Part shown: in pieces, positions 23,654-44,218 of the stretch
Position numbering within the stretch: position 1 is the first letter of the stretch
Layout: every line of letters starts with the position of its first letter
Assembly: GCF_000026545.1 (NCBI RefSeq)
Contig: NC_011601.1
Strand: one strand, 5' to 3'
Length of the DNA: 64,000 nt
From: Escherichia coli O127:H6 str. E2348/69
Lineage (GTDB): Bacteria; Pseudomonadota; Gammaproteobacteria; Enterobacterales; Enterobacteriaceae
The notes under the pieces: generated by a model
Databases searched by the model: none
What the model was told of the DNA's origin: nothing
The model's input: only the letters and a program-made list of their open reading frames with translations
Position numbers and translations under genes: made by a program

Positions 23654-23893
23654 ATGAGCAAAACTATCGTATTGCTGCCGCCCCGCAAGAATACAGACTG
23701 GGCTGCACAATTAAAGCTGATTTCTGAATCGCTTGAGGTGAGTCAGGCAGACCTCGCCCACGCCTATCAGGTTGATCGTCGGGATATGGGTAAAGCGTAT
23801 CACGGTGTGCGCAAACTGCCGGAGCGTTGTGTGCCTGTTCATATGCTGTTGTTAGCGCAGGTACACGACTTTAGAGCATTATCAGGAGAATAA
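23654..23893 (+). CDS. small HTH-like protein
   Basis: 79 aa, RBS GAGGA. The segment LEVSQADLAHAYQVDRRDMGKAYHG resembles an XRE-type HTH. Confidence 0.55.
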   Translation: MSKTIVLLPPRKNTDWAAQLKLISESLEVSQADLAHAYQVDRRDMGKAYHGVRKLPERCVPVHMLLLAQVHDFRALSGE

Positions 23894-23896
23894 TTT

Positions 23897-24577: not shown

Positions 24578-24716
24578 CGCCCAACGGTGGAATGCGCCCT
24601 GCAAGACTGAGTGCGCACCAACCCGGTACTACCACACCAATCTAAGCGCATGAGTCCCCGCAAGCCGCATTCTGCGCGGCATCTGAAAGCCTGTTTTTAA
24701 TTAACCGAGGTTCGTA

Positions 24717-25130
24717 ATGAGTACCTGTAATTTCCATGCCGTGGTGCGTGTCGCTGACGTGCGCCCGGATTTCGCCTTGCCGCTGGGTAGATGCGACCAC
24801 ATTTACCCTGAGCGTGTGCAGCACGTTTTCAATCCAGACGAAGCGGTTTATATCGTTGCCCGGTCTGCCACATCCGGCACCCGCACATCTGGCGTTAGCC
24901 GTGGGCTTTCCCCTGTGCTGCCGCCGAAGATGGCCGAGCGGATGCGCGAACGTGAACGGCACGAGAAAAACCGAGTCAGACCCCGCAAGGTGATCACTGA
25001 GGCGATACGCGCTGACATTATCGATCGCTCTGCAAAAGGTCAGAAGAATCGTTACATTGCAAGCAAGGTTGGTGTGTCTGAAACCTCTGTGCGGAAGGTG
25101 TTGAACATGGCGCGTATGAGTGCGCACTAG
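24717..25130 (+). CDS. DNA-binding protein with a C-terminal HTH (regulator or small-terminase-like)
   Basis: 137 aa, RBS GAGG. The C-terminus NRYIASKVGVSETSVRKVLN resembles a resolvase-type HTH. Confidence 0.55.
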   Translation: MSTCNFHAVVRVADVRPDFALPLGRCDHIYPERVQHVFNPDEAVYIVARSATSGTRTSGVSRGLSPVLPPKMAERMRERERHEKNRVRPRKVITEAIRADIIDRSAKGQKNRYIASKVGVSETSVRKVLNMARMSAH

Positions 25131-25349
25131 TGCAAGGTAATACGTTCACCTTACTTCACGCGCACTAACCCCTGAGAACCGTGCCAGCTCTGGCCTCAAA
25201 ACGCCCATTTCGGGGCACCTCATTCCTCTTAATCGATACCGTTCTGAATCCTGCCTCGGCGGGAGGATTACGCACGCCCGCGCCATGACGATGGCCGGGC
25301 CTATCTCGTCAGTGAATCCGCTGGCACAACCTACGTAGGAGTTTTACAT

Positions 25350-26345
25350 ATGGCCGATAACATTTACTCGCCTGACCAGTTCCGCCCACATTATGGCGGG
25401 GTGGAATCTGACAATGATATTCACATCGAGGCTTATGACCGGGATGTCCAGACCCGTTTAGAGTCCAAATCCGTATTTCTGGCCGAGGGGCTGTCTACAT
25501 ACAGGCCGCTGAAAGCCAGCAACCAATATCGTGTTGATCGCCTGAGTGGTGATCTGGAGGTGAAGGGCAGAACCGCAGGGCAATCGCTGGAGCCTACCGC
25601 TGTTAAGTCGGATAAGCTGATTATCTCTGTGGATACGCTGAGTTATATCCGCATCCCGATTGACTATCAGGATGACTGGACAGCACCCACCTTTCGCTCA
25701 GAGCTGAGCCGCAATATCGGTACTGCTCACGCTAAATTCTACGACGAAGCGCACACCATCCAGCTAATCAAAGCGACTGACTTTGTACCGCCGCCGACGT
25801 TGCAACCAACGTTTAACCCGCTGACGGATAATGTTGTCTCGCTCGACCTGACAGCGGGGAGCGAAGAGGACGCCGCAAACGAATTGTCTCACGCCGTAAA
25901 AGCGGCTGCTAATCGCTTTCTCACTGAGAAAGATATTCCGGTGGCCGAGCTGGTACTGCTTATCGACCCGGCTTGGTTCAGCATCCTGATGGAACATAAG
26001 AAGCTGATGAACATCCGTTACAGCCGGGATAGTGGCAACGATTACGCATGGCGTCGAGTTGGCTATGTCGCTTGGGTACGAGTCATTGAGCTGAACAGTT
26101 ACCCGCAGGGAGCCATTACCGCGCATGAACTGGGCGCTGATTATAATGTGACCGCAGGGGAAGCGCTGACACGGGCGACGCTGTTCCGGCCTGCGTCTGT
26201 ACTTGTGACAGTCGAAGCGCAGAGCGTCATCAATCGCCAGTGGGATGAGGAACGCGAAATGACAATGGTGATGGACTCATATCGCCTGTTCAATGTTGGG
26301 CTGCGCCGCCCGGACTGCGTTATCAATTTCCGACAAGCTGCATAA
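25350..26345 (+). CDS. major capsid protein, T7 gp10-like (HK97 fold, no delta domain)
   Basis: 331 aa, RBS AGGAG. Block-wise resemblance to my recollection of T7 gp10A: FRSELSRNIGTAHA / VRSEYTSQLGESLA, LLIDPAWFSIL / FYCDPDSYSAIL, and C-terminal FNVGLRRPDCVINF / AMGHGGLRPEAAGAVVF. Confidence 0.55.
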   Translation: MADNIYSPDQFRPHYGGVESDNDIHIEAYDRDVQTRLESKSVFLAEGLSTYRPLKASNQYRVDRLSGDLEVKGRTAGQSLEPTAVKSDKLIISVDTLSYIRIPIDYQDDWTAPTFRSELSRNIGTAHAKFYDEAHTIQLIKATDFVPPPTLQPTFNPLTDNVVSLDLTAGSEEDAANELSHAVKAAANRFLTEKDIPVAELVLLIDPAWFSILMEHKKLMNIRYSRDSGNDYAWRRVGYVAWVRVIELNSYPQGAITAHELGADYNVTAGEALTRATLFRPASVLVTVEAQSVINRQWDEEREMTMVMDSYRLFNVGLRRPDCVINFRQAA

Positions 26346-26361
26346 CTGGAGGGGCTGAGTC

Positions 26362-26871
26362 ATGGTTAATGATGCTTACGCCCCTGAGCTGTTGCGATCC
26401 CTTTTCCTGTATGACCCGGTGACAGGTCGCCTGCACCATAAAGCTAGCCGATGCCGGGTTACGGCTGGCTCCTATGCTGACTCCACCCGGCGAGCTGATG
26501 GCTATCGTCAAGTTGCCCTGCGACTGGATGGCAAGCAGTACCAGCTAAAAGCCCATCGCGTAGCGTGGATTCTTGCGCATGGTGCTATTCCCCACGGTAT
26601 GCAGATCGATCACATCAACGGTACCCGTGACGATAACCGCTTATGCAATCTGCGATTGGTTACGCAGCGGGAAAACGACCAGAACCGACGCAAGGCAAGG
26701 GGGTATAGCTGGAATAAGGGCTGTAGCAAATGGGAGGCTTACATACGCGTTGGTGGTGTACTCCGTCACCTTGGCTTATTCACATCCGAAGCGGCAGCTC
26801 GTGCTGTGTACCTGAAAGCTAAAGCCAGATACCACCCCTCAACGCCTGACGATTTATTGCAGGCTGCCTAA
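26362..26871 (+). CDS. HNH homing-type endonuclease with an AP2 DNA-binding domain
   Basis: 169 aa with HRVAWILAHGAIPHGMQIDHINGTRDDNRLCNLRLVT (HNH_3 type) followed by WNKGCSKWEAYIRVGGVLRHLGLFTSEAAA (AP2-like). Confidence 0.8.
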   Translation: MVNDAYAPELLRSLFLYDPVTGRLHHKASRCRVTAGSYADSTRRADGYRQVALRLDGKQYQLKAHRVAWILAHGAIPHGMQIDHINGTRDDNRLCNLRLVTQRENDQNRRKARGYSWNKGCSKWEAYIRVGGVLRHLGLFTSEAAARAVYLKAKARYHPSTPDDLLQAA

Positions 26872-26889
26872 CCCTCGGAGGTTCCATTA

Positions 26890-27315
26890 ATGGCTGATGA
26901 AAAGCCGATTAGGTCGCTGGCAGGTGATGACCCACGCCGCCAGCAGTACGCCGAACTGTTGGCGCAGGCTAGCCGCATGACTATTCCCCGGCTGCATCCG
27001 GGCGATGCTAACAGTGTGATGAGTCAGCTTGCAACGATGCTTGGCGCACCTGTCCCGATAGTCGGTGCTATGACTGAGCACGCCGCTGCATGGCGTGCCT
27101 GTCTGCTTGAGCAAGGACTTGGCGAGCTTCTGGATGGCTTGAGTAAACAGGTGCTGACCATCTTCTTTCTGCTCTGCTGGAGAGACAGCGCCTTGCGATT
27201 GGCTGGTAAGCAAAAGAAACGGCTTACAGCCGCCAGCGAGGGTTTGACCATTGAGCAATACCGGGCAATGCACCCGGCTTACAGAGAGGATAAAGAACAT
27301 GATAACCACGATTAA
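26890..27315 (+). CDS. hypothetical protein
   Basis: 141 aa, RBS GGAGG 8 nt upstream. Confidence 0.55.
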   Translation: MADEKPIRSLAGDDPRRQQYAELLAQASRMTIPRLHPGDANSVMSQLATMLGAPVPIVGAMTEHAAAWRACLLEQGLGELLDGLSKQVLTIFFLLCWRDSALRLAGKQKKRLTAASEGLTIEQYRAMHPAYREDKEHDNHD

Positions 27316-27598
27316 ATTAAGGTGGCGGTACATCGAGACGCCGCCAATGACTGGCGCACTCGCTGACCTGAAACAGTGGGTAATGAATGCCGTAGAGCCT
27401 GAGCTTGAGGCTGAATTTCGTAAGCTGCTGGGGCAGATGCGTCGCAATGGTATCAGTGATGGGCGCGTAAATGCGGTGGCTGATGAGCTTTATGCTCTGG
27501 TATGCCAACGCCAGCGCGAAGAATACGAAGCCTGCAAGCGGGCTGCCTCTGACAATGGAGACTTTGAATCATGGTTACACGGACAGACCAGCTACTAA
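27299..27598 (+). CDS. hypothetical protein
   Basis: I prefer the start at MITTIKLRW (27299), which has RBS AGAGAGGA upstream, over the track start at 27251. 99 aa. Confidence 0.5.
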   Translation: MITTIKLRWRYIETPPMTGALADLKQWVMNAVEPELEAEFRKLLGQMRRNGISDGRVNAVADELYALVCQRQREEYEACKRAASDNGDFESWLHGQTSY

Positions 27599-27996
27599 GA
27601 AAAGCTATGAGGGGCTATCTGGAACACCTTGGCAACATGCCGCTGGCGGAACGGATTACAAATGCTGCTGTATTCGAAGATGTGTATCGCTTTTTGTTGA
27701 ATGGTTCCGGGCGGCTGGAGCTGCGCCGCGCTGACGTGGCTGCCGTCCGTGTCTTCCTTTGGAACTATCAATACCGCCGCTGTGCTGTGACAGGTAAGCC
27801 GCTGCGCCTTGCGTCTGCCGTTCTGGATCACTGCCACCGAACCGGGCGCGTGCGTGCTGTGGTGCATCGTTCTGCTAACGCTGCTGAGGGAGGCCGCTAC
27901 GTTGGGCGGACGTGTGGTGTTAGCGTTACGAATCTAAGGGCTATGATTGGCAGCTATCGCAAGCAATACACTGGTATTGGCATGTTATATCCATAA
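27571..27996 (+). CDS. endonuclease VII-family (HNH-like) nuclease
   Basis: 141 aa. CAVTGKPL...VLDHCHRTGRVRAVVHRSANAAEG resembles the Endonuclease_7 motif (C-x2-C ... DH-x-H-x-TG-x-VRG..C..CN..G). Confidence 0.6.
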   Translation: MVTRTDQLLRKAMRGYLEHLGNMPLAERITNAAVFEDVYRFLLNGSGRLELRRADVAAVRVFLWNYQYRRCAVTGKPLRLASAVLDHCHRTGRVRAVVHRSANAAEGGRYVGRTCGVSVTNLRAMIGSYRKQYTGIGMLYP

Positions 27997-28037
27997 CTGC
28001 GGGGTAATAAACCCCGCCGAAATAGTAGCGTAGCCAC

Positions 28038-28940
28038 TCAAACAGGAATGTTGTAGTAATGACAAATTGCATTAGTTAGTAGAGCTGGTGCAGCAGACGC
28101 TGCAATATTTAGCGTCCCCGCATATGCTTTACCAATCATATTTACAACCCACTTCCCAAGGCTATCACTGAAATTGTCCGGGGTAGTTGGGGCGGGTGAT
28201 TCTTGTATAGCTTGATGAAGGCTCTTAATATCTTCATCATTAGCGCCCCAATCCTTGAGCTGCTTTTCAAGCGAGTTGAAGTCTCCAGCGTTGACAGTAT
28301 TATTTTGTGAAATGTCCCCGTTACCAGAGCCAATAACGCCAGCATTGTTTACGTTGCCATGAATGTTGGTCACGTTATGGACAGTCATTGGCGCTACCTC
28401 TTTTTCTCTTAATGAAAACTGTAACCCTTCGCCTAAAATACCCTTTGACTCTAAGTCTAAAGACCAGTCGAGGATCTTATTCCTAACGGTAGTAATTACA
28501 TGTTCTAGTACACCAGCGCTTATAACCCATACCATCTCAGTCTTTTGTCCGATACTTTGAGCTAATGTATCAGCCATCCAATCCGGGAGAGGTAAAAAAG
28601 GGTTTTCTCCTTTATTGCTCATCTTTTTTATAGATGATATTGATTCTGTAATGTGAAACGTTGATACCATTGCATTTAATTCCGCGTCGTTGAAGTTGAC
28701 CACAAGCGGAACCCAGCTCTGATGTTGGGGACTATATGCTTTTAACTGCGATTGACCTTTCCTGTATTCAGGAACCGTATCAAAGCTGGGATAGCCATTT
28801 AATTCGAGCTGTATCCACTCGGTCAAATCGCTGAGGCCGAGCTTCACTGCAATCATTTTGGCCTTCATGAGTACAGATAAAATGTCGGAGTCGGGATCGC
28901 ACGCTAGTGCTTGAAGTTCAAGAACTGGTGAGTTAGCCAT
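28038..28940 (-). CDS. AbiTii-like abortive-infection family protein
   Basis: 300 aa. The N-terminus LELQALACDPDSDILSVLMKAKMIAVKLGLSDLTEWIQLELNGY matches the AbiTii N-terminal pattern as I recall it. It lies adjacent to the integrase. Confidence 0.55.
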   Translation of the reverse strand: MANSPVLELQALACDPDSDILSVLMKAKMIAVKLGLSDLTEWIQLELNGYPSFDTVPEYRKGQSQLKAYSPQHQSWVPLVVNFNDAELNAMVSTFHITESISSIKKMSNKGENPFLPLPDWMADTLAQSIGQKTEMVWVISAGVLEHVITTVRNKILDWSLDLESKGILGEGLQFSLREKEVAPMTVHNVTNIHGNVNNAGVIGSGNGDISQNNTVNAGDFNSLEKQLKDWGANDEDIKSLHQAIQESPAPTTPDNFSDSLGKWVVNMIGKAYAGTLNIAASAAPALLTNAICHYYNIPV

Positions 28941-29027
28941 ATCAAGACCTTAGTATTGTTTTGATAAGGTATCTTACCCGCATCGAACCATGCAGTCTAA
29001 GGTTCGCAGGCCAAACTCACCCATGAG

Positions 29028-30239
29028 TTAGATGTTTATTCCTTCATGCTGGATGAGTTCGACATACTTACCGATCTCTATAGGGGAAGCTGCATTTTTC
29101 GAGTAAGTTTTGAAGCTCTCTGTACTCCCGCGCTCATGACCGACGAGCAGGGCAATACGATCTTCTGGCACTTGAGCACGGTCGAGCTGTTGCACAAAAG
29201 CATGGCGGAGTGAGTGAAACACTTTTCTCTCTGCGGCAGGCTCGCCAAGAGCTTTACGCTTTGCTCGCGTGAATTGCTGCGTATGCCACGTTGAGCGCTT
29301 CCCATCGGCCCGGTCTGTTATTGATGCGTGATAGAACAGAAAACCGCTATGTGTGGTCTTGAGCAATGACTTCACGAGAGGGATTATCTTGCTGTGTACA
29401 GGGACGATTCGCGCCGCGCTCTTAGTCTTCCCCTCGGTGATCTCAAAGCACAATATACCCTCGATAGTTTTAATACTGCTTTCACGTAGCGTACATATCT
29501 CATTGATCCGCATACCGCTGTATGCACCAATAGCCGTTACCGCCTTCATCTCGTCATCAAGCAAGGCATAGACCTTTGCCAGCTCTCCCGGTGCGAAGAC
29601 TTCATAGCTGACCTTGCTGCTTTTTGCTTCGAGCGCATGACCGCGCCAAGGATTGTCCTGTGGTGCATCGTGATAGCGATTGCGTGCCAGATCCCATATC
29701 TGCGCCAGTGCGCTTATATAGTTTTGGATAGTTTGGGGCGCTCGCTCAGTTTTGAGCTTATCTAACCAGCCTGTAACTATGGTTCGGTTAATATCCCGCA
29801 ACTGAACATCTTTCTTTTTCAAGTGGGTTAACAGCACCTCTACGGCTTTGTTGGTCTTGGATAACGTGGTTAGCTTTCGCTTCTCGCTGTATTGAAGCAG
29901 GTACAAATCACGCATTTTTAGCAAGGAAGGGCAAGCCTGAATCGATGCACCAAACGATGCGGGGGCTTCCTTGGCGTACACACTGACACGGCGTAGCTCA
30001 TCAATGATTTGGTCTACAGATGAGCCGCCTTGTGGCTTTAGCAGATTCCGTAAGCGAGTCCATTCCAGAGCAATAGCATCTCGAAACAATCGCGCTTGGC
30101 GTATGTCTCGTGTTCCTGTGCTTTTCATAAAGTAGCGCTTCCCTTGGAACAGGTGGCGCATATAGCTGGGAATAGCTATCCGCACGAGGTAATTCCCGCA
30201 GGGATCTAAAACTAGATAACGATCTCTCTTGAAACTCAT
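29028..30239 (-). CDS. tyrosine-type site-specific integrase
   Basis: 403 aa with a catalytic set consistent with R (SGMRINEI), HSLRH, LVGH and a C-terminal Y (FKTYSKN). Its start lies 133 nt from attR. Confidence 0.9.
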   Translation of the reverse strand: MSFKRDRYLVLDPCGNYLVRIAIPSYMRHLFQGKRYFMKSTGTRDIRQARLFRDAIALEWTRLRNLLKPQGGSSVDQIIDELRRVSVYAKEAPASFGASIQACPSLLKMRDLYLLQYSEKRKLTTLSKTNKAVEVLLTHLKKKDVQLRDINRTIVTGWLDKLKTERAPQTIQNYISALAQIWDLARNRYHDAPQDNPWRGHALEAKSSKVSYEVFAPGELAKVYALLDDEMKAVTAIGAYSGMRINEICTLRESSIKTIEGILCFEITEGKTKSAARIVPVHSKIIPLVKSLLKTTHSGFLFYHASITDRADGKRSTWHTQQFTRAKRKALGEPAAERKVFHSLRHAFVQQLDRAQVPEDRIALLVGHERGSTESFKTYSKNAASPIEIGKYVELIQHEGINI

Positions 30240-30372
30240 ACAAACCCCGGTTATGTTGTCGGGGCTTTTTCATGGCTAAACAGTCTGTGAAATGTGCCGG
30301 GGTCATGAGCTTTAGTCTAGCTAGTTCAACAAGTTAACGATGATTGTTGAAGCAAGCTAAGTCGCTATAACC

Positions 30373-30403
30373 CGTGCCGGTTCGAGTCCGGCCTTCGGCA
30401 CCA
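30373..30403 (+). repeat. attR core: displaced copy of the leuX 3' end
   Basis: Exact 31-bp copy of 15312-15342, with no upstream tRNA body. Confidence 0.9.
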
Positions 30404-30419
30404 CATCGTATGCAAATCG

Positions 30420-30443
30420 AGTCGCTCAAGGGCGGCTTTTTTT
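30420..30443 (+). terminator. probable native leuX rho-independent terminator, now at attR
   Basis: Hairpin agtcgc (30420-30425) / gcggct (30432-30437, one G-U pair) followed by T7, 17 nt after the repeated CCA end. Confidence 0.65.
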
Positions 30444-30627
30444 GTGTCTGGGATCCATTAGTTACCTATCTTTCTCGCTATTTTAACTCTCTCAGAGCCA
30501 ACCAATTTCAACCCATCGCAAACGAAAAATGTTGGTACAGGCGTTGGTATTTTCGGTTCGATATTAATTTGTATTAGCTCAGTCCTGATCTGACAGCTAT
30601 CTGCCAGATCAGGTTCGGATTAATACA

Positions 30628-33600
30628 TTATATCTGCCCGCCTACACCTTTAAACTTCTCAATAAACGCGACGATCTTCTGGAAAACCGTCTGTTTTTTC
30701 GTCTTATATTGCGGGTTTAACGGACTGAGTTTTGGCAATGTCTCGTTTAATTCCGTGCCATTTTCGGTGGCGTATTCGCGTTTTAAAGACGTGCGAATAT
30801 AGCGTTTCGCCGCCTCTTCATTGAGATTTTCTTCTTTAATCAACGCTTCTGCTTCACGTTGCTGTTCGCGTTGAGCAAAGGTAAAGAACGCGTCAATGAT
30901 GCTGGCTTTATCCGGCAAATCATCCAGGTTCGTTTGCTGAATAAAATCGACCACCAATCCTTCTTTAGCACGGTTCCCAAGGCTTGAACGAATTAAGCGT
31001 TTGACCTCTTCGGTCATTTCGCCCTTACCTTTGTTTTGTCTGTTGTGTTCGAAAATCAGTCCAAGGATATAATCCAGGTTTATTTCCTGAGACTTCAGCA
31101 AATCGACCTCAAAAACCACGTCATCCCAGTCGGTGGTTGATTTTTCTTTTTTGTCAGCTTCTTTCTCACGGCGCTGCCAGTCACGAATATCGTTATAGGC
31201 AGAACGATAATCCTGAATCTTGCGTTCAGCAGGGAGACGAATCGTTTGCAATTCAGCGAACTTTTCATCATCCACATAATGTTCTGCTTTGAATTTTTCT
31301 ACTGCAACAGGATCGCTAAGATCGATTTGTTGCAGGGCTTTCAGCGTGGCAAATTCATCATAGTTTTGCAGGATGTTCTCGGCACGCAGGTATTCACCAA
31401 ACAGTTTAACGAAGTCTTTCTTCTCTTTTTCACTTTCAATACTGGCAGGGTCAGGGAACCGTTGTTCCAGTTCTGCAACTACTGCCATAAAGCCGCGCTT
31501 AGCTTCACCAGTAGCAGCATCAGTAAAGCCTTCCATATACTCTGCATAACTCTTTTCTAACACTACATTTTTGGTGTTTTTGTCACCAAACAACGTTATG
31601 GCATCGATGGTTGAGCGTTCCAGATCGCGGAAAGTGACGATATTACCGAAGGTTTTAGTAGCGTCATAAATGCGGTTGGTGCGGGAAAATGCCTGCATCA
31701 GGCCGTGAAAACGCAAGTTTTTATCGACGAATAGCGTGTTCAATGTTGGAGCGTCGAAGCCGGTTAAAAACATCCCCACGACAATTAATAGATCGATATC
31801 CTGATTTTTAACCCGTTGGGCTAAATCACGATAGTAGTTCTGAAAACCGTTACTGTCGGTGCTGAAGTTAGTTTTAAAATAGCTGTTATACTCACGAATT
31901 GCAGCATCAAGAAACTCTTTAGCACTGCTGTCCATTGCGCTGGTATCAAAAGTTTCATCAGAAATTTCACCAATGGCATTTTGTTCTTCATTGGCGGTAA
32001 AGGAGAAGATTGTCGCAATACGCAGCGGTTTATAGGTAGCCGATTTATTAGCGGCTTCTTCTTGTAACCGTTTAAACGTCGCATAATAGGCTTTCGCGGC
32101 ATCCACGCTGCTCACTGCCAACATAGCATTAAAACCTTTTGAGCCAGGGAAGGTACGGTGGGTTTTCTGGCGGAAATTATTCAGAATATATTGCGTGATT
32201 TCCTGAATACGCATGGGATGAAGAAACGCCTGCTGATTTTCAGCCGCACTTAGTTTTTTCTCGTCAGTTTCTGTCTCTAAAGACTTAAACTGTGGTCGCA
32301 CATCGTTGTAGTCCACCTTGAATTTGAGCACTTTTTCGTCACGAATCGCATCGGTAATTACATACGAATGCAATTCACGACCAAATACGCTGGCGGTTGT
32401 TTCTGAGCCTAAGGCGTTTTCCGGGAAAATAGGGGTGCCGGTAAAACCAAACTGATAATAGCGTTTGAATTTCTTCTTCAGGTTTTTCTGCGCTTCTCCA
32501 AACTGGCTGCGGTGGCATTCATCAAATATAAACACCACTTGCTGATTATATACAGGCAGGTCGCTTTCTGCTTTCATCAGGTTATTGAGTTTCTGAATAG
32601 TAGTGACGATAATTTTGTTATCGTCCTTATCCAGATTTCGTTTAAGGCCTGCGGTATTTTCCGAGCCGTTGACGCTGTCTGGCGAAAAACGCTGATATTC
32701 CTTCATGGTCTGGTAATCGAGGTCTTTCCTGTCGACCACAAAGAAGACTTTATCAATAAAGTCCAGCTCTGTTGCCAGACGCGCGGCTTTAAAGCTGGTG
32801 AGGGTTTTACCAGAACCGGTAGTGTGCCAGATATACCCACCGCTTTCCGGTTTTGACCAGTTCTTCGCTGTAAAGGAACTCTTAATTTTCCACAGAATGC
32901 GCTCGGTGGCGGCAATCTGGTACGGTCGCATCACCAGTAGCGTCTGACTACTGTCAAAAACGCTGTAGTTCACCAGAACATTCAGCAGAGTATGTTTCTG
33001 GAAAAAGGTAGCGGTAAAGTCTTTGAGGTCTTTAATCAGCGTGTTGTCTGATTTCGCCCAGTTCATGGTGAAGTCAAAACTGTTTTTATCGCGCTTTGTC
33101 GTGTTGGCAAAATAACGGGTATCGGTGCCGTTAGAAATGACAAACAGTTGCAGATACTTAAACAGGGAATTTTCGCTGTTAAAACTCTCTTTACTGTAAC
33201 GATGTATCTGGTTGAAAGCCTCACGAATCGCCACCCCGCGTTTTTTTAGTTCGATTTGCACCAGCGGTAAACCATTAACCAGGATCGTGACGTCATAACG
33301 GTTAGCATGAGAACCCGTCTGTTCAAACTGCTGGATAATCTGCACCTTATTGCGCATGAGATTCTTTTTATCTATCAAATAGATGTTCTCAAGTCGCCCG
33401 TCGTCAAAAATAAAGTCGCAGATATAGTCGATATGGATTTTACGGGTTTTATCCAGAATACCATCGCTGGGGTTGTCCAGATACTGCTCCGTGAAGCGCC
33501 GCCACTCGCTGTCATTAAACATCACACCATTGAGGCTCTGAAGCTGTTCCCGAACATTAGACAGCATTGCCGACTGTGATTTTACGGAAATAAATTCATA

Positions 33601-33744
33601 ACCCTGATTCCGCAGGTCCTGAATCAGTTCACGTTCCAGGTCCGATTCGCTCTGGTAGCTGTCGCTTGTTTGCTCAGCTTTGATGTACTTATCAAGGACG
33701 ATAAAGTTATTGGATTCAGCAATGGTGTGTGTTTGATGAGTCAT
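30628..33744 (-). CDS. hsdR: type I restriction enzyme R subunit, type IC (EcoR124I family)
   Basis: 1038 aa, near-identical over its length to my recollection of EcoR124I HsdR ([24 protein letters not shown]...). Motifs TGSGKT and FDECHRS. Confidence 0.95.
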
Positions 33745-33865
33745 AGCGCATCCTTTGTGCCGCCTGGCAAGAGCCGGAAGGGCGTTAAGAGTGACTTCCG
33801 GCGCGTAAAAAATAGTCTATATACTGACCGGGTGTTAAGGTGGCCCGATCGGTAGCAATGGTCAA

Positions 33866-35088
<1,223 letters not shown>

Positions 35089-35092
<4 letters not shown>

Positions 35093-36645
35093 TTTTGCAC
35101 CTCGCAGCCTTCAATTTCAGCCACAATCGCATCAATATCTTTACGCAACTGGTCGATTTTGCTAACCGTAGTTTTAAGCTCTGCATTTAGCTCAGCAATA
35201 TTGATAATTTCGCGGTTATCTTTCGCTTCTACATAGCAGCTCACCGACAGGTTATAGTCATTAGCGACAACGGTCTCAAACGCGACAGATTTCGCCAGAT
35301 GAGCAACATCTTCCTTGCTGGCAAATACCTGCATAATCTGTTCGATATGGGCATCGGTCAGGATATTGTTGTTGGTCTCTTTTTTGAATAGTTCGCTGGC
35401 ATCAATAAACTGAACTTTGGTATCCGTTTTATGTTTAGACAGCACCAGAATATTTACGGCAATGGTGGTGCCAAAGAACAGGTTCGGTGCCAGTGAAATC
35501 ACGGTTTCGACATAGTTATTGTCAACCAGATACTGACGGATTTTCTGCTCCGCGCCGCCACGGTAAAAAATGCCCGGGAAGCAGACAATCGCAGCACGAC
35601 CTTTGGCAGAAAGATAGTTCAGCGCATGTAATACAAACGCAAAGTCAGCTTTGGATTTGGGGGCCAGAACGCCAGCCGGGGCAAAACGCTCATCGTTAAT
35701 CAGCGTCGGGTCATCGCTGCCAATCCATTTCACCGAATACGGCGGGTTAGAAACGATGGCATCAAACGGTTTTTCATCTCTGAAGTGCGGCTCAGTCAGC
35801 GTATTGCCCAGCTTGATATCAAACTTGTCGTAGTTGATGTTGTGCAAAAACATGTTCATACGTGCCAGGTTATAGGTCGTATGGTTGATTTCCTGTCCGA
35901 AAAAGCCTTCTTCAATGATATGGTTATCAAACTGCTTTTTAGCCTGCAACAACAGTGAGCCGGAACCCGCTGCCGGGTCGTAGATTTTGTTAACGTTGGT
36001 CTGCCCGTGCATAGCCAGTTGTGCAATCAGCTTGGAGACGTGCTGCGGTGTAAAGAACTCACCGCCTGACTTACCGGCATTTGCCGCATAGTTAGAAATC
36101 AGGAACTCATAGGCATCACCGAACAGGTCAATCTGATGTTCGTTGAAGTTACCAAGTTTTAACCCTTCAACCCCTTTCAGAACCGCAGCCAGGCGGGCAT
36201 TTTTATCTTTAACGGTGTTACCCAGGCGGTTACTGGTGGTATCGAAATCAGCAAACAAACCTTTGATGTCTGCTTCTGAAGGGTAGCCGTAAGCAGAACT
36301 TTCGATAGCAACGAAGATGCTGTTTAAATCTGCATTCAGTCTGTCATTGGTATTTGCTTTCGCCGCTACGTTGCAGAAAAGCTGACTGGGGTAGATGAAG
36401 TAGCCTTTAGTTTTGATGGCATCGTCTTTAATATCATCAGTAATTACGCTGTCATCCAGTTTCGCATAACAGATACTGTCATCACCGGCTTCAATATAGC
36501 TGGAAAAATTTTCGCTGATAAAACGGTAGAAAAGCGCGCCCAGAACGTATTGCTTAAAATCCCATCCATCGACCGAACCTCTGACATCGTTAGCAATTTG
36601 CCAGATTTGGCGATGAAGCTCCGCGCGCTGCTGAAGACTGGTCAT
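35089..36645 (-). CDS. hsdM: type I N6-adenine DNA methyltransferase M subunit
   Basis: 518 aa with motif [11 protein letters not shown] and motif IV NPPY ([10 protein letters not shown]). Its stop overlaps the hsdS start. Confidence 0.95.
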
Positions 36646-36951
36646 TTTTTATCCTTTGAATGTGTTTTTAACGTCGGCTTTTGCCGGGATTTTACCGGAA
36701 GTTTTTTGGTTTTTCAGATTTGTATGATGGTGAGGAGGGGATTCAGTACCAGATTGTTAGTGCATCTTATTCAGCATTCACCGTTTGAGTCAGGAGGCTA
36801 TTTTATATGCCCATCGCCCATCCGTAGGTGATCAGATAATTTATTGCGAGTCACCTTCCCGATTTTCAATCTCATTATTTACCCAATATTTCACCAGAGG
36901 ATAATCCGTCTGCTACTAACGGCGAGTGTATTTTTTTACGGATGAAAGATT

Positions 36952-37785
36952 ATGCAAACAGAAGCTGAAGTCTTAACCGATCACAACGAGATAATTCGCT
37001 CGACCAATATTGAGCGTATCGTCACAGGACGTGATAGCGCACTGAAGCTGATAGCGACGCTAATCCAAAAACTGGATGATATCTCCAGTCTGACATCCAG
37101 TATTGGCGGTGATGTGGCTGGAACCTGGGGAATGCGTAATGGATATGCCTTTGACTGCTGGCTGATGCAACCAACCGACAAAGCGATGTCGGCGATCACC
37201 CGCAATATCGATCGCAGCATCTGGCGCGATCTCATGCTGAAGTCCGGGATGTTGACTCTGATGGATGCCGAAGCCCGCAGTCAGTGGGCAAAGAACCTGG
37301 AGGAGGGCGATCTCCCGGCGATTAGCGAAGCCAACATCCTGAGTACCTTTGAACAACTCCACCACAATAAGCATGATGTTTTCGAACGTGGGATTATCAA
37401 TGTATTTAAGGGATTGAGCTGGGATTACAAAACCAATAATCCCTGTTATTTCGGTAAGAAGATTATCGTTAACAATCTGGTGAAGCATGACCGATGGGGT
37501 TACAGCCTGCACTGGGGCTGGCGGCGAGATCAGCTTGCCGATCTGGAACGGATGTTCTATCTGCTGGATGGGAAGGCCATTCCCGATAACCGGCATGATG
37601 TTGCGATTCGGTTTATGGACTTCGTTAGTGCTCACCCGCATGAGCAGGTATTTAATGACGATTTATTTGTCATCCGCTATTACCAGAAAGGCAGTGGACA
37701 CATCACATTCAAGCGACTGGATCTGGTGGATAAGATGAATGACATTGTGGCGAAGCACTATCCGTCAGCGTTATCAGCAAAATGA
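36952..37785 (+). CDS. DUF4942-like protein, unknown function
   Basis: 277 aa, divergent from hsdM. The C-terminal pattern FVIRYYQKGSGHITFKRLDLVDKMN resembles DUF4942-type proteins as I recall them. I see no catalytic motif. Confidence 0.5.
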   Translation: MQTEAEVLTDHNEIIRSTNIERIVTGRDSALKLIATLIQKLDDISSLTSSIGGDVAGTWGMRNGYAFDCWLMQPTDKAMSAITRNIDRSIWRDLMLKSGMLTLMDAEARSQWAKNLEEGDLPAISEANILSTFEQLHHNKHDVFERGIINVFKGLSWDYKTNNPCYFGKKIIVNNLVKHDRWGYSLHWGWRRDQLADLERMFYLLDGKAIPDNRHDVAIRFMDFVSAHPHEQVFNDDLFVIRYYQKGSGHITFKRLDLVDKMNDIVAKHYPSALSAK

Positions 37786-38146
37786 ATGTCGTATGTTTGC
37801 TGTCAAAATGTCGTTACTGGAACCCTCTGAATTTCGGCATATCCATTTACTGGAAATAATACCTACCTGAAAAACCGTTGATTCCCTATGCAACTAGAAA
37901 CCGCACACAGGTTGAAAAAACGAGTAGCTATTTTACGTCTGAAAGAATGCTATAGCCTTCTCTGAGAGCCACCAACATCATGCGTTTTGCAGTTCAAAGT
38001 CATCAGATAAATGTGGTGGCTCCAGGGCAGAAGGTAATTTCAGGATGAAAGTTATTTTTTTTATCACAAAATTTAACATTTTTGAGATTAATCCGATAAG
38101 ATAAGGCTATCCCAATTTCCCTCCCCCCTACATATTGGATTAAGAG

Positions 38147-40201
38147 ATGGTTCAGGATTCATCAGCATTAGCCCCTTTCTTTCGTGCTCAAATTGAAAAA
38201 AATAATCAATACAATTCAGTTTGGGGCAAACACTACCGCGAGCTTGTAGAACAGATTCAGGCCGAAAAACCAAACTTTTCTGAAGCCACGATTCGGCAGG
38301 TATGGTATGAACGTGACAATGGTGTCTCCAGCCTGATGCAAGGTGGGATGTCATTGGTTGAATTTGAAAATGCACAAAAAGACCTTCTAACGCTCACCCG
38401 TCAGATAGCAGAAGAGTGTACACAAGAAAATTATAATCGGGTCATTGAACGTCTTATCAAACTTAAAGCGGACGGAGTATTAAATAAGGTATATAGGGCT
38501 CTTTGTAATCGTGCTTTTGCAGCAATATACCCATCAAAAATTAGCAGTGTCGTGAATGTTAATAATTTTTTTAGTTGCTACAATTATTGCAACAACCATT
38601 TCCAGCTAGGTCTTTCCGGAGAACGGGAGTGGCTGGCTCGCAATGTTGATCTTAAAGAAACGCTAAATCGTGCGCTGGGTGATGATATCGACCCTATTGA
38701 GCTGAATATGTCACTTTGGCATCTCTATGCGTATGAAATTCAGGATAAAAATGCTATCGGTTTAGTTGGAAGCGAAAGTGCTTTACAAGAAAATGAGCAA
38801 GAAGATGATGTTATAAGTTCGCCATTGCCTAAAAACACAATTCTCTATGGCCCGCCAGGTACAGGTAAAACATATCGTACTATTGAGCTTGCTGTACAAA
38901 TTTGTGATCCGATCGCTTACTCCCTGCAGGAGGGTAAGGATGAGAGTGAAAAACGTCGCGAGTTGAAAAAGATTTATGATCAGCTTATCAAAGATAATCG
39001 AGTGCGTTTTATCACCTTTCATCAGAGCTTTGGTTATGAAGAGTTTATTGAAGGTTTAAGAGCTGAGACTACTGATGACGGTAATGTAAAATACGAAATA
39101 AAGGCAGGTATTTTTAAACAGATATGCGAGGATGCCGCCTTTGGTCATGCTGGTGCGCAGGAAATGTTGGATAGCGCACTTACTCGCCTACAAGAACGTT
39201 TATCTGAAGGTGAAAATATCACGCTGGAAACACAACAGGGTAAGGCCTTCCAGCTGACGTATAAAAGTCAAACCAACTTTGGAATTTTTCCGTCACAATC
39301 GAAAAAAGAGGATTTAGGACAGGGTTACAATGCCTATTTGAAGGATATTCGGCAAGTTTATCAGGATCCACGAGCAAAAGTACATAATCCATCTTATGTA
39401 CGCAGTATCCTTAACTATTTAATTAATCAACGTTATCTGCCTCTGAATACTCAGAGCGTAGCTTCAGAAAAAAAGGAAAACTATGTTCTCATTATTGATG
39501 AAATAAATCGGGGTAATATTTCAAAAATTTTTGGTGAACTAATTACCCTTATTGAGCCATCTAAACGGGCTGGTGAGCCAGAATCGCTTAGCGTATTGCT
39601 GCCATACTCTTCCACTCCATTTAGTGTACCGAATAACCTTTATTTAATTGGTACCATGAACACTGCTGATCATTCGCTTACTGCACTTGATACTGCACTA
39701 CGTCGCAGATTTGATTTTGAAGCGATGCTGCCAGATATTACTGTTCTGAAAGATACTGTCATTAAAGGTATTGATCTGCCTCGTCTATTGCAGACGCTTA
39801 ACGATCGCATCCAGGTTTTATACGATAGAGAACATATGCTGGGGCATGCTTTTTTTATCCCTGTTGTGCAGGCAAAAGAAGACGAAGCTCTGGCATTTGA
39901 AAGATTCAAACGGATTATGCGAAATAAGATACTACCATTGCTGGAAGAATATTTTTACAATGACTGGCAAAAAATTCGCATGGTACTGGCTGATAACCAA
40001 AAAGAGGAAGCACCAGATCTTCAATTTGTACGTGAGGTGAAATACCAGAAAAAGTATGCCGATCTCTTTGGTGATAACGGAACAGATGACTTGGGAACCA
40101 GTTTTCACCTGGCAGCAGAGGATGACAACGTTTGGGACAATCCAATCGCCTGGCAGCAAATTTATGCACCTCAAAAAGAAAAACGCAGGAGTGCGGAATG
40201 A
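38147..40201 (+). CDS. McrB-family AAA+ GTPase with a non-canonical N-terminal domain and an internal insertion
   Basis: 684 aa with Walker A GPPGTGKT (aa 235-242), FITFHQSFGYEEFIEG, Walker B YVLIIDEINRGN (aa 446-457) and the McrB signature MNTADHS. Confidence 0.85.
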   Translation: MVQDSSALAPFFRAQIEKNNQYNSVWGKHYRELVEQIQAEKPNFSEATIRQVWYERDNGVSSLMQGGMSLVEFENAQKDLLTLTRQIAEECTQENYNRVIERLIKLKADGVLNKVYRALCNRAFAAIYPSKISSVVNVNNFFSCYNYCNNHFQLGLSGEREWLARNVDLKETLNRALGDDIDPIELNMSLWHLYAYEIQDKNAIGLVGSESALQENEQEDDVISSPLPKNTILYGPPGTGKTYRTIELAVQICDPIAYSLQEGKDESEKRRELKKIYDQLIKDNRVRFITFHQSFGYEEFIEGLRAETTDDGNVKYEIKAGIFKQICEDAAFGHAGAQEMLDSALTRLQERLSEGENITLETQQGKAFQLTYKSQTNFGIFPSQSKKEDLGQGYNAYLKDIRQVYQDPRAKVHNPSYVRSILNYLINQRYLPLNTQSVASEKKENYVLIIDEINRGNISKIFGELITLIEPSKRAGEPESLSVLLPYSSTPFSVPNNLYLIGTMNTADHSLTALDTALRRRFDFEAMLPDITVLKDTVIKGIDLPRLLQTLNDRIQVLYDREHMLGHAFFIPVVQAKEDEALAFERFKRIMRNKILPLLEEYFYNDWQKIRMVLADNQKEEAPDLQFVREVKYQKKYADLFGDNGTDDLGTSFHLAAEDDNVWDNPIAWQQIYAPQKEKRRSAE

Positions 40202-41508
40202 AATCTTCCAGTCATTTCACTGTGTTCGAATACGGGCATTTAGTGAGTGAGGAAGGTGATGCCCGTATAAATAATGCGGTAGTGCTACCTGCAGACCTAT
40301 TTAAATGGCTTGAGCTGCGCTGTCTGAAAGACGATGCTGATAATACTCATCGTTTGCTCACCCTTAGCAGCCGGAATGGAGTAAAAACGCTGCAGGTAAA
40401 AAACTATGCAGGAGTAATCTCACTGCCAGGGGGGCGATTTCTCGAAATCCTGCCTAAAACAGGTCAGGATAATGAGGATACTGTTCGTCAACAATTACTG
40501 ATGATGTTACGTACGTTAAAATCATTTCGTCATATTGCCTCCTCTGAATCTGGCGTCAAAATATCTAAAATGCCTCTGATGGATATCTTTATTCAACAAT
40601 TTATAGAGAGCGTGCGTAAGATTGTGCAGAGAGGGTTAAAACGTGACTATTTACGTCAGGAAGATAATCTTCCATGGATGAAAGGAAGATTACGGATCTC
40701 TGCACAATTAAGCAAAAACTGTATTAGGCGGGATCGTTTTCAGGTGGAGTATGACGAGTACAGCGTCAATCGTCTGGAAAACCGGATACTCAAAACTGCA
40801 ATCAATAAGATTAGTCGCCAGACCAGTAATCCACAATTATTACAGCAGATAACACAGCTGCAGTTTCACTTTGAAAATATCACGTCAGTTCATGATGCTT
40901 ATATAGCTTTCGAGCAGTTACACTTTGATAGACAAATGCATCACTATGAGCAAGCATTAGCGTGGGCGAAGATGATTTTATTGGGCGATTCTCCACACTG
41001 TATGTATGGGGATGTTAATGCTTTTTCACTGCTTTTCCCGATGGAGGCTGTTTTTGAATCTTTTGTGACGACATGGATGCGTTATCGTTATTATGATAAA
41101 TGGCGAGTGGACGCACAGGTAAGTTCAAAAAATCTGATTAGTTATAACGGTAAAGCTTTATTTAAGCTGCGGCCTGATATTTGTTTACGGCCTCGTAAAA
41201 GTACTACTGGTTCAGTTATTACCTGTGATGTTAAATGGAAGATAGTAAATGGCAGAAAGGACAGTCTTGAACAATCTCAAGCCGATCTCTACCAAATGCT
41301 TGCCTATGGATTGAATTACCAGGAGGGGGAAGGTGATATGATTTTGATATACCCCTATCATAACGGATTTAATCAGCCATCTCCTCATCCTTATGAATTT
41401 AGCCATCAGAAGGAAAATAGGTTACGTTTATGGGTTGTACCTTTCTTTATTGGCGAGAGTTTACAAACATCAGAGTTGCGTTTTCCTGGTGGGGCTGAAT
41501 TTATTTAG
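40198..41508 (+). CDS. McrC-like nuclease subunit
   Basis: The ATG at 40198 overlaps the mcrB-like stop (ATGA) and has RBS AGGAG 6 nt upstream. 436 aa with a PD-(D/E)xK-like LRPDI...CDVKWK. Confidence 0.8.
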   Translation: MKSSSHFTVFEYGHLVSEEGDARINNAVVLPADLFKWLELRCLKDDADNTHRLLTLSSRNGVKTLQVKNYAGVISLPGGRFLEILPKTGQDNEDTVRQQLLMMLRTLKSFRHIASSESGVKISKMPLMDIFIQQFIESVRKIVQRGLKRDYLRQEDNLPWMKGRLRISAQLSKNCIRRDRFQVEYDEYSVNRLENRILKTAINKISRQTSNPQLLQQITQLQFHFENITSVHDAYIAFEQLHFDRQMHHYEQALAWAKMILLGDSPHCMYGDVNAFSLLFPMEAVFESFVTTWMRYRYYDKWRVDAQVSSKNLISYNGKALFKLRPDICLRPRKSTTGSVITCDVKWKIVNGRKDSLEQSQADLYQMLAYGLNYQEGEGDMILIYPYHNGFNQPSPHPYEFSHQKENRLRLWVVPFFIGESLQTSELRFPGGAEFI

Positions 41509-41570
41509 TATTTGTAGGCTATCTCTTTATACAATTTATTTGTCTATTTGTATGCACAAAATAGCCTACC

Positions 41571-42443
41571 TCACCCCCTAAAAACCTCTTTCCGATGCCA
41601 CTCTACAAACACCTCATAAGGGTAATTTTTACGTACCTGCGGCAAAGCAATAGTTTTCCCGTCAAAATCCCAGAATAGTTTCTCAACGATCCCTCCGCCG
41701 TTTACCGCATCTGATACCAGTACCCGCATATTTTCGTCCAGGCCAATCGATCCTTTATCAAAGGCTTTATGGTGAATTGCGCAAAGCGCCAGGCCATTAG
41801 GAATTTCACAAGGACCGCCGTGCTGTTTCCATTTTATATGCGCCGCTTCAAGCGCGACGGTGGTGTCGTCGTGGCGCATATTAAAGCCACATATCGCGCA
41901 CTGGTAGTTATAAGCGCGTAATACATTTTTGCGAAATAACGGGTCGCGCTGTTTACGGATTTGCTGGAGGTCAAAACCCAATTCGTCAGCAATTTCCTCC
42001 TGAATACTCTCGGTAAAATGCGCTTCGAGTATCTGTTGCGCCAGGGTATTGATGAGTTTTTTATTGCCGGTTACCAGGGCGTAGTGCTGTTCATCGAAAC
42101 CGCCTGCAACGCGGTGTTCGGTCAGTTCCTTCACTGGCGGTTGTCGGCTGCTCCCTGCTGTTGAGCAAAGCCCGGCATTGTGTAATTGCCAGAATCCGTC
42201 GCCTTGTAATCGCCAGAACGGCATATCAGGTCGGTACTGTGAACGCTGTGGCCCAAAACGTTCCAGTAAACTGTGCAGAGGTTCGTAGATTTCCGAGCCA
42301 TAATCGAAAAGGCGCGGATGTCCATTCAGGTATCCCGCTAATACGTATAGCAATAACAATGGCTTATGCGGCGCGCGCTGTTCACCCTTGTGCCAGATTT
42401 TTATATTGGCAATTGCCTGCTGTAGCGATTTACTGGAAGCCAT
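41571..42443 (-). CDS. HNH (HNH_2-type) endonuclease with an N-terminal putative modified-DNA reader domain
   Basis: I prefer the start at MASSKSLQQ (42443, RBS AGGGA). The C-terminus is YQCAICGFNMRHDDTTVALEAAHIKW...NGLALCAIHHKAFDKG. The N-terminus has RAPHKPLLLLYVL ... PFWRLQGDGFW. Confidence 0.7.
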   Translation of the reverse strand: MASSKSLQQAIANIKIWHKGEQRAPHKPLLLLYVLAGYLNGHPRLFDYGSEIYEPLHSLLERFGPQRSQYRPDMPFWRLQGDGFWQLHNAGLCSTAGSSRQPPVKELTEHRVAGGFDEQHYALVTGNKKLINTLAQQILEAHFTESIQEEIADELGFDLQQIRKQRDPLFRKNVLRAYNYQCAICGFNMRHDDTTVALEAAHIKWKQHGGPCEIPNGLALCAIHHKAFDKGSIGLDENMRVLVSDAVNGGGIVEKLFWDFDGKTIALPQVRKNYPYEVFVEWHRKEVFRG

Positions 42444-42579
42444 TGATATCCCTGGCAGTGAAATAATTGCGATCATGCTCGCAAATTTTCTTCTGTTCAA
42501 GCCTGCAAGTGAAGATATATTACTTTGATCTCATTTGTTTTTTTGCTGCCTGCTCTGAGAACGTATAAGGATATTCCCC

Positions 42580-43230
42580 ATGAATAAACTTCCCGACCAT
42601 CTTCCGCGGCGGTATATCATCGAAGCTATCCATTTATGGGATGCGGGAGAAACTCATCAGTTCCAGCCTGCACGGTTGTATTAGATTGAATATCATGGCC
42701 GACGTTACCCCTCGAAGGCGATTGCTGGCATCGCAGCGACATTGATGACGGGGACGCAATTTACCCCTGCGGATTTCACCGGCGGAATAAAATCTAAATG
42801 CGTCAAACTACTCATAGAGCAGGGATTTCATATTCATCAGGATAAAGCCGCTGCGGCTCCCATAGCCGACGTTCTGTTCCCGGATGAGTTGCCGTCGCAG
42901 GAGACCTACGTTGAAGGTGCGGCGATAAAGGTGACAGTAAACCGCTATGAACGCGATAAAAAGGTCCGAGATAAAGCGGTCGAATATCATGGATGCCAGT
43001 GCAACGTATGCGGCGTTGATCTGGTGAAGATCTATGGTGATATTGCTGAAGGCTTTATCCATATGCATCACCTGGTGCCGCTTTCAGCCATTAAAGAGGA
43101 TTACCAGCTGGATCCAGTTAATGATTTGCTGCCTGTGTGTCCTAATTGCCATGCGATGTTGCACCGACGCAAACCACCGTTTACGCCGGAGGAGTTAAAA
43201 GCGTTGATGGATGCGAATAAATCAAATTAA
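42580..43230 (+). pseudogene. McrA-like HNH endonuclease interrupted by an in-frame TAG at codon 35
   Basis: ATG at 42580 with RBS AAGGA. The frame runs MNKLPDHLPRRYIIEAIHLWDAGETHQFQPARLY-TAG(42682-42684)-IEYHGRRYPSKAIAGIAA... and continues into track ORF 42742..43230, which carries CQCNVCG...HMHHLVPLS...LLPVCPNCHAMLH. Confidence 0.7.
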
Positions 43231-43237
43231 TGAACGC

Positions 43238-44218
43238 TCACCTTTCGCGCCAAAACTGCAAAATTGCTTCTACAAACCTGTCAGAAATAATCCCCCGACG
43301 GGCTGCCGCGCTGAAATGACTGCTTCGCAGTGCCGTCGTCCAGTTCTCCGGTGACCGGTACGCTGAACCGTAATATCCCGTGCTTAAATCGTCCGGGTCT
43401 TCATCAGGCGCGTTCGTCAGTCCTCTTTCACCTTGTTGCTGGAAGTCGACGAAAATAATATTGGCTAAAACATTATTTTGATAATTGCCATAAATAGCTT
43501 CATACGCATGAGGGAAATTTTCTTTCCAGTACCAGGTGGTATCGCCGCAAAACCACGGTGCGTCAGTAATATTATTAAGCTGAGAATGGTATTGTTTTAG
43601 ATCCCTACGAAAGGCTTCAACCATATGATTAAAGTGTTGAGGATGTGACGCGTAGTCACTGGTCATTAAGTCAAATTCGCCTTGCATCCAGCATACGCCG
43701 AGGAATTTGTTCTGCGGATTTTTTGCCAGTGCGGCTCGCGTTCTGCTCACTAAATCCTGGTATAGCGGAGTATCCGTTCCCCAACGACAAGCATCATGGC
43801 TGGCTCCGTGCCGTTCTGAATATGTCCCTTCGCTGCCCGCGGTAAAAGCCGATCCGCCACGGCAACACGGAACGATGAGAACCCCTGCATTATCAGGAAT
43901 AAAGGGCAGTAATTTCCGTGCTATATGCAGTGCCTGGCCAACGGTGCCGTACTGTGTTTGATGATTCGTTGCCAGAGGATGGTGATAACCCTGCATATCC
44001 TGAACATCGTGTGGGCAGTGAGTCAGTGGAATAATGTCGTTAAAGTGACATGACGGGCCTCCGGGATGCGTATGCGCAAATCTCGCTAATTGTTTAATTC
44101 TGGGATGAGGCGCATCTTCCTTGTCCGGTAATGGTAGTCCTTCGCCATACGCCATGGCATTAGATTGACCAGCAACGGTAAGAACATAGTAATAATCGGG
44201 CGATATTATCGCGTTCAT
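43238..44218 (-). CDS. nanS: 9-O-acetyl-N-acetylneuraminate esterase
   Basis: 326 aa (MNAIISPDYYYVLTVAGQSNAMAYGEG...) matching my recollection of NanS/YjhS. Confidence 0.92.
   Translation of the reverse strand: MNAIISPDYYYVLTVAGQSNAMAYGEGLPLPDKEDAPHPRIKQLARFAHTHPGGPSCHFNDIIPLTHCPHDVQDMQGYHHPLATNHQTQYGTVGQALHIARKLLPFIPDNAGVLIVPCCRGGSAFTAGSEGTYSERHGASHDACRWGTDTPLYQDLVSRTRAALAKNPQNKFLGVCWMQGEFDLMTSDYASHPQHFNHMVEAFRRDLKQYHSQLNNITDAPWFCGDTTWYWKENFPHAYEAIYGNYQNNVLANIIFVDFQQQGERGLTNAPDEDPDDLSTGYYGSAYRSPENWTTALRSSHFSAAARRGIISDRFVEAILQFWRER

Follow-up and report, generated by a model that had tools for sequence, protein, structure and literature searches.

How does a block of restriction genes with no mobility gene of its own come to lie between the tRNA gene leuX and nanS in Escherichia coli O127:H6 strain E2348/69? 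We addressed this question in a stretch of 64,000 nucleotides of the chromosome (the window; the 12.8-kb block, used as a query, matched this strain at 100% identity, and a window position equals the NZ_LT827011.1 position minus 4,715,068), in which the block spans positions 30404–43237. A sequence-only reading of the window had taken the block for a single restriction island that fills the leuX–nanS interval, and for an additional or relocated relative of the immigration control region. The single-island picture does not hold, as the pair of HNH endonuclease genes at the right end belongs to a nearly species-wide flank of nanS. The block is, in our judgement, probably a composite island of defence genes, built in layers at the leuX hotspot, that has been immobilised and has become much like ordinary chromosome.

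Within the interval, leuX (tRNA-Leu(CAA), 15258–15342, plus strand; found with ARAGORN, the sole tRNA gene in the window) is followed by a 15-kb integrative element and then by the block, which consists of a relic island arm, the type IC genes hsdR, hsdS and hsdM, a DUF4942 gene, an McrBC-type gene pair and two divergent HNH endonuclease genes. Gene calls are those of the PGAP annotation and families were assigned with Pfam, PADLOC and NCBIfam scans; annotation and scans were concordant. The restriction and defence cluster reported at the leuX hotspot is thus present gene for gene, although its description as containing only nucleic-acid-targeting genes fits the restriction genes and not DUF4942, which has no demonstrated nucleic-acid function. 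Seven of the eight genes are intact; decay to inactive remnants, named beforehand as grounds for abandoning the sequence-only reading, is confined to the second HNH gene. That gene ends at 43230, exactly the stated 7 bp from the nanS stop codon at 43238, and nanS itself (43238–44218, minus strand), the conserved right anchor, is an intact 326-amino-acid open reading frame (ORF) with about 98% identity to its K-12 counterpart. Homology to K-12 restarts 3 nt past the nanS stop codon, and in K-12 the interval is filled by 40 kb of KpLE2, as the sequence-only reading had said. Both bounds of the wider hotspot #37, lptG (11206–12291) and uxuR (60012–60785), are present in the window; other strains have different content between them.

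The attachment (att) sites belong to the neighbouring element and not to the block. The 31-bp core at the 3′ end of leuX occurs exactly at 15312–15342 (attL core, the last 31 nt of leuX) and at 30373–30403 (attR), and these repeats bound an element of 15,061 bp, position 30404 being the first base beyond attR. A search of the window with 31-, 23- and 17-nt cores, allowing up to about 26% mismatches, yielded no further att copy in the block, which therefore lacks direct att repeats at its two ends. PGAP annotates no integrase or transposase in 30404–43237, and the block does not have the integrase of its own that would mark a mobile island. The sequence-only reading was accordingly right that integrase, insertion sequence and att copy are missing, but the block does retain traces of mobile elements.

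One such trace is the arm (30404–30627, plus strand), which comprises the 224 bp after the att core and contains no integrase gene. It starts with a terminator-like hairpin (30419–30438) and a T-run tail, and from 30404 to about 30580 it is approximately 80% identical to the leuX–intB spacer of KpLE2 in K-12 and to the leuX–int spacer of the island in strain JX2; the homology breaks off about where the integrase gene would start. In strain 1303 the same arm comes after leuX. JX2 has a complete 33-kb island, from int to CbtA, that ends in a degenerate attR (TTCGAGTCCGGCCTTC-GCACCA), downstream of which lie the same arm, hsdRSM and DUF4942. Strain 20KM2762 also has a degenerate attR, at the end of a CP4-like island, and then the same arm. 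A similar arm in strain 1943 leads into an integrase N-terminal pseudogene and then dptFGH (extracted locus L009, 4001–8157). The degenerate attR and arm in JX2 show the island there to be a later insertion; because they separate CbtA from hsdR, a model in which hsdRSM was cargo between CbtA and DUF4942 of one CP4-like island was dropped.

The DUF4942 gene (36952–37785, plus strand; PF13708, E = 1e-68) is the second recognisable piece of an island. In Klebsiella, Citrobacter and other enterobacteria it is the last gene of the CP4-like backbone, which has the order DUF932, antirestriction, RadC, DUF987, CbeA, CbtA, DUF4942. In strain KMi025, an IS66 connects a KpLE2-like fec island to a truncated DUF4942, downstream of which are mcrBC and SBD-HNH. 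The AlphaFold model of the DUF4942 protein has a mean pLDDT of 60, and a Foldseek search against the PDB returned nothing with E < 1; no function could be assigned. We also observed, in Klebsiella contigs (L018, 13554–15238; L019, 13345–16885), a divergent pair of SBD-HNH and ScoMcrA_N-HNH genes a few kilobases downstream of a DUF4942-terminated island, and other Klebsiella contigs have a cluster of McrC, McrB (DUF8426) and HsdR at the corresponding position.

The modules of the block have very different distributions among 5,426 complete E. coli genomes. At a coverage of at least 80%, the whole block was found in 163 of them, at the same position in unrelated strains, and its modules also occur separately and at very different frequencies. 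The block is accordingly accessory, as had been claimed; presence in most E. coli, the finding that was to count against this, applies in part to the two HNH genes but not to the block as a whole. Strains 1303 and MINF_1D carry the block without any integrase in the interval. Comparison of E2348/69 with strain 1303 gave a mosaic of identities: 99.5% for mcrB and 99.6% for mcrC (window 38147–41508 versus L004 19725–23086), 95.9% for hsdR, 96.7% for hsdM, 92.8% for DUF4942, 97.7% for SBD-HNH and 95.4% for HNH, with flanking core genes at 94.3–98.5%. Taken together, the gene-by-gene mosaic, the relics and the module frequencies favour a layered origin.

The right-hand layer is the divergent HNH pair. 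The first gene, SBD-HNH (41571–42443, minus strand), is intact and encodes a predicted phosphorothioate (PT)-DNA-dependent restriction endonuclease of 290 amino acids and of the EcoWI/SprMcrA type: residues 6–289 score 437 bits against a cut-off of 180 for NF045808 (PT-DNA_restrict), the SBD matches the ScoMcrA and SprMcrA structures, and PF26340 and HNH_2 (PF13391) matches place the SBD at the N terminus and the HNH domain at the C terminus. The second gene (42580–43230, plus strand) encodes a ScoMcrA_N head domain and an HNH domain, with 216 amino acids in other strains. Of the two divergent HNH nucleases that the sequence-only reading described, both genes exist but the second is disrupted in E2348/69, where TAG at codon 35 (42682–42684) replaces the GAG of other strains; PGAP rescues a 181-amino-acid ORF directly after this stop. 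Traces of SBD-HNH were found in 4,871 genomes, K-12 included, with near full length in 1,706, and traces of HNH in 2,756, with near full length in 1,238; both are near full length in 325. The relics in K-12, located in the unannotated yjhR–nanS gap, comprise an SBD-HNH fragment of about 250 bp, the divergent intergenic region and the first 16 nt of HNH, the last fused to the nanS stop. In other strains, the right-hand genes persist under KpLE2-like and other islands. Because their traces, including the K-12 relics, are nearly species-wide, the two HNH genes are an old, near-universal and repeatedly eroded flank of nanS and not part of a strain-specific island.

Some further details of this flank were recorded. 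The K-12 remnant of SBD-HNH cannot be equated with the pseudogene yjhZ, as the alignment places it in the unannotated gap. The small ORF ythB of K-12 takes its start codon from the relic of the deleted HNH gene, and ATGAATAAACTCCCCG is joined there to nanS 3′-end sequence in antisense (NC_000913.3 ~4536280–4536700; locus L003 ~42280–42700), and a YthB-like 29-amino-acid ORF overlaps the HNH stop in E2348/69 (window 43230–43319). Many RefSeq records call nanS truncated at this site despite the intact 326-amino-acid ORF. The leuX interval can hold either PT-based self-marking systems, as with the phosphorothioation-dependent restriction genes dptFGH of strain 1943, or, in E2348/69, a putative nuclease against PT-modified DNA.

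Next to this flank lies the McrBC pair, which consists of an McrB-family AAA+ GTPase gene (38147–40201, plus strand; 684 amino acids) and a gene for an McrC-family nuclease subunit (40198–41508, plus strand; 436 amino acids; PF10117, E = 3e-100) that overlaps it by 4 nt. The GTPase core and the adjoining nuclease subunit identify the pair as McrBC; as scores for the NCBIfam equivalogs of the EcoK proteins were low (McrB, 116.8 bits against a cut-off of 637; McrC, 107.8 against 338), it is not orthologous to EcoKMcrBC. Residues ~1–200 of McrB (window 38147–38750) form a confidently predicted all-alpha domain that matched no Pfam family, even in a newer Pfam release, and had 128 detectable relatives in 1.84 billion representative proteins. 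Those relatives that were aligned or scanned with Pfam are McrB-like proteins with the domain ahead of the ATPase; at least one of them has an EVE reader domain between it and the McrB AAA+ core. This predicted domain could represent a novel module for target recognition or regulation in a type IV enzyme. The ATPase part also has an insertion of predicted beta-strands (residues ~355–400). The pair was found in 315 genomes, always on the chromosome and in a single copy, and in 309 of these it is at least 99% identical to that of E2348/69.

On the left, directly after the arm, lies a complete type I system, with all three genes on the minus strand: hsdM (35089–36645; m6A methyltransferase subunit of 518 amino acids; TIGR00497, 644 bits; N6_Mtase and HsdM_N), hsdS (33866–35092; 408 amino acids) and hsdR (30628–33744; intact restriction subunit of 1038 amino acids). 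Residues 1–1038 of HsdR, that is, its full length, align with EcoR124I HsdR (PDB 2w00; 2266 bits) and contain HSDR_N, SWI2_SNF2, T1R_D3-like and EcoR124_C (PF12008, E = 3e-72) domains. Alignment with EcoR124 HsdS (PDB 7bst) revealed N-terminal, central and C-terminal conserved regions of the EcoR124 type in HsdS, which also has two distinct target-recognition domains and, in its centre, three TAEL repeats, (TAEL)x3, whose codons occupy 34477–34521. The genes have the M–S–R order of type IC systems, with a 4-nt overlap of hsdM and hsdS and a 121-bp gap before hsdR. The assignment to type IC is thus upheld and can be narrowed to an intact member of the EcoR124 family. An EcoprrI/PrrC arrangement was ruled out, the hsdS–hsdR gap being too small for prrC. 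The number of TAEL repeats sets the length of the target spacer in EcoR124I and EcoR124II; because there are three repeats here, the spacer of the target is probably 7 nt by analogy.

This cassette circulates beyond leuX. It was found at a coverage of at least 80% in 324 genomes and at a further 779 places on plasmids, and 1,099 records of the plasmid collection matched it at ~97% identity. The cassette, same hsdS allele included, is also found on the 140-kb E. coli plasmid AP027478.1 (1392–7411; 97.8% identity over 99% of the length), and the borders of plasmid homology coincide with the hsdR stop and the hsdM start. At the leuX locus, hsdS varies in length between strains. In the two parts of the E2348/69 genome that were inspected, namely the window and the yjiA–yjiN immigration control locus, no other type I system was seen.

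The alignments show the relics and the layering themselves; for the order of events we propose the following. The divergent HNH pair beside nanS would be the ancestral layer, since eroded repeatedly. A second layer would be the McrBC-type, putatively GTP-dependent type IV enzyme with its helical N-terminal domain, a cassette whose recent spread fits its near-identity in every carrier genome. The third layer may be what remains of a CP4-like leuX island with a P4-type integrase: its tRNA-proximal arm without the integrase and DUF4942, with the EcoR124-family hsdM–hsdS–hsdR, of a kind that also circulates on plasmids, in its interior. The latest event, subsequent to the formation of the block, would be the insertion of the 15-kb integrase-bearing element into leuX ahead of it. 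The layered arrangement may be older than E. coli. By family knowledge, an HsdM2S complex would methylate a bipartite target and HsdR would cut DNA that is unmodified there, and the type IV enzymes are predicted to cut foreign DNA that carries modifications, so that the layers together might cover both unmodified and modified invaders.

Several observations weigh against this reading. Parsimony across about ten loci, and not a phylogenetic reconstruction, underlies the order of acquisition. The arm is ~80% identical, not identical, to known integrase-upstream spacers, and we found no genome with the exact arm still ahead of an intact integrase. Its first ~45 nt are the leuX terminator common to many strains and may belong to the native chromosome instead of the island. 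Because there is no attR relic after DUF4942 or elsewhere in the block, the right end of the old island is placed solely by DUF4942 being the terminal backbone gene. A scan for promoters and terminators found sites no more often than in shuffled sequence, and a literature search for methylome, activity or expression data on E2348/69 gave nothing relevant.

Could the whole 12.8-kb block instead be ancestral chromosome, an old restriction locus passed down vertically and since lost or overwritten in most lineages, and not the remains of mobile elements? Such a history would account for the absence of mobility genes and att copies from the block, its identical position in unrelated strains and the truly near-universal HNH pair, and the divergence of hsdR, hsdM, SBD-HNH and HNH from their counterparts in strain 1303 is indeed similar to that of the flanking core genes. 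It is nonetheless improbable, given that the whole block is limited to 163 genomes, that the hsd cassette is on more than 1,000 plasmids at ~97% identity, that mcrBC is 99.5% identical between strains with core-gene differences of 2–6%, and that the arm and DUF4942 can both be traced to island backbones. Much less probable again is one intact, mobilisable leuX island served by an integrase in trans, for example from the 15-kb element. Although the block stands directly behind an att copy, has an integrase gene 164 bp to its left and is found as one 12.8-kb unit in many strains, neither its nanS end nor its interior contains another att copy, its modules occur apart from one another, 1303 and MINF_1D have the block and no integrase, and the right-hand genes survive beneath KpLE2-like and other islands.

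That the classical hsd–mcrBC–mrr immigration control region was translocated from yjiA–yjiN to leuX in this lineage we regard as barely credible. The yjiA–yjiN locus of E2348/69 (NZ_LT827011.1, 4788738–4792866; L002, 12739–15911) contains only symE, an hsdR C-terminal pseudogene and a gene for a 616-amino-acid NERD+UvrD helicase (PADLOC candidate defence model C3a187, E = 3e-140), and no hsdM, hsdS, mcrBC or mrr, hence no restriction–modification system. The loss of these genes, with an hsdR fragment kept, and the presence of a functionally similar locus at leuX are what a translocation would leave; however, the hsdR remnant speaks for decay in place, the hsd genes at leuX are type IC and not IA, IB or ID, McrB and McrC fall far below the EcoK equivalog cut-offs, the block has no mrr, and a survey of 9,040 enterobacterial genomes recorded no type IC system at the immigration control region (PMC12707154). 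In position, too, the block is distinct, lying between leuX and nanS with yjiA–yjiN ~30–36 kb further on. The sequence-only reading thus erred on both counts: the leuX block is not an additional locus, because hsdMS, mcrBC and mrr are all missing from the canonical region, nor is it a relocated copy, given the difference in enzyme families.

The layered, immobilised island that we prefer has an integrase-bearing neighbour. The integrative element in leuX (15343–30372), outside the block, has its tyrosine integrase gene (29028–30239, minus strand) at the end far from the tRNA gene, next to a gene for AbiTii (28038–28940, minus strand); further genes encode a DpdF-like helicase (20150–21994, plus strand; PADLOC DpdF model, E = 2e-277), an HNH protein (26362–26871) and a serine recombinase (18315–18884). 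As a whole it resembles a small defence-carrying element or satellite.

The block is one instance of the published leuX hotspot; the phenomenon is already known, and the system is not of a new kind. The locus is hotspot #37 of Hochhauser et al. (2023; PMC10121019), which is occupied in 97.3% of genomes, has a defence system in 97.4% of occupied sites, holds 31 system types and shows no detectable mobile element in 68% of cases; the mode of mobilisation was left undetermined in that study. A 2025 EcoSal Plus review names leuX as the hotspot anchor, bounds the interval by lptG and uxuR and lists type IC systems as typical of this hotspot, with a frequency of 4% (PMC12707154). The near-universal SBD-HNH/HNH flank plausibly explains the high published occupancy. 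As a tentative extension, which we would not yet favour over other modes, hotspot #37 cassettes that lack mobile elements may turn over by homologous recombination and not by site-specific integration. Fossil sequences (the integrase-less arm after leuX, DUF4942 and the eroding SBD-HNH/HNH pair) could then serve as anchors, and such exchange would explain the 99.5% identity of mcrBC between strains whose neighbouring genes differ by 3–7%. If true, it would address the question raised by Hochhauser et al. of how systems at hotspot #37 move. The locus illustrates a route to a defence island without visible mobility genes, in which insertion into a tRNA gene would be followed by deletion of the integrase, with the cargo fixed beside older relics. 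E2348/69 is a widely used reference strain for enteropathogenic E. coli (EPEC), and because the block combines a type I system with two apparently intact type IV systems, it is plausible that it contributes to the acceptance of plasmids, phages and modified DNA by this strain.

Each module has a known counterpart. The hsd cassette resembles EcoR124I and EcoR124II of plasmid R124, with an HsdR of the same length that aligns throughout, the same M–S–R order, and the conserved HsdS regions and TAEL repeat in common (three repeats here, as in EcoR124II). Both target-recognition domains differ, so that the recognised sequence differs from that of EcoR124, and the cassette is chromosomal here, although near-identical cassettes occur on plasmids. 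The McrBC pair shares with those of K-12 and Thermococcus gammatolerans an adjacent, overlapping McrC with the full PF10117 domain; its McrB is longer (684 versus 459 amino acids), and the all-alpha N terminus is unrelated to the EcoK DNA-binding domain and to the T. gammatolerans YTH domain. SBD-HNH has the SBD and HNH architecture of EcoWI, SprMcrA and ScoMcrA without an SRA domain; EcoWI itself cleaves DNA with the GpsAAC modification and acts as a barrier to dnd+ plasmids in vivo (PMC7461809). Compared with the ScoMcrA group, the head-HNH partner is here a separate, divergently transcribed gene, inactivated in E2348/69.

As an assemblage, the block is reminiscent of the immigration control region at yjiA–yjiN described by Raleigh and colleagues: both are chromosomal clusters of type I restriction–modification and type IV genes, both vary between strains in a cassette-like manner, and neither has an obvious mobility gene inside. 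They differ in locus and enzyme families, and the left anchor of the block is a tRNA integration site, unlike that of the immigration control region, which is why integrase-bearing elements pile up ahead of it. Hotspot #37 has the same interval (from lptG/leuX to the nan–fim–uxuR side), is packed with defence systems and in most published instances lacks a detectable mobile element; the papers on that hotspot provide frequencies and examples, whereas the layering of arm relic, DUF4942 relic and HNH flank was worked out here, from about ten loci.

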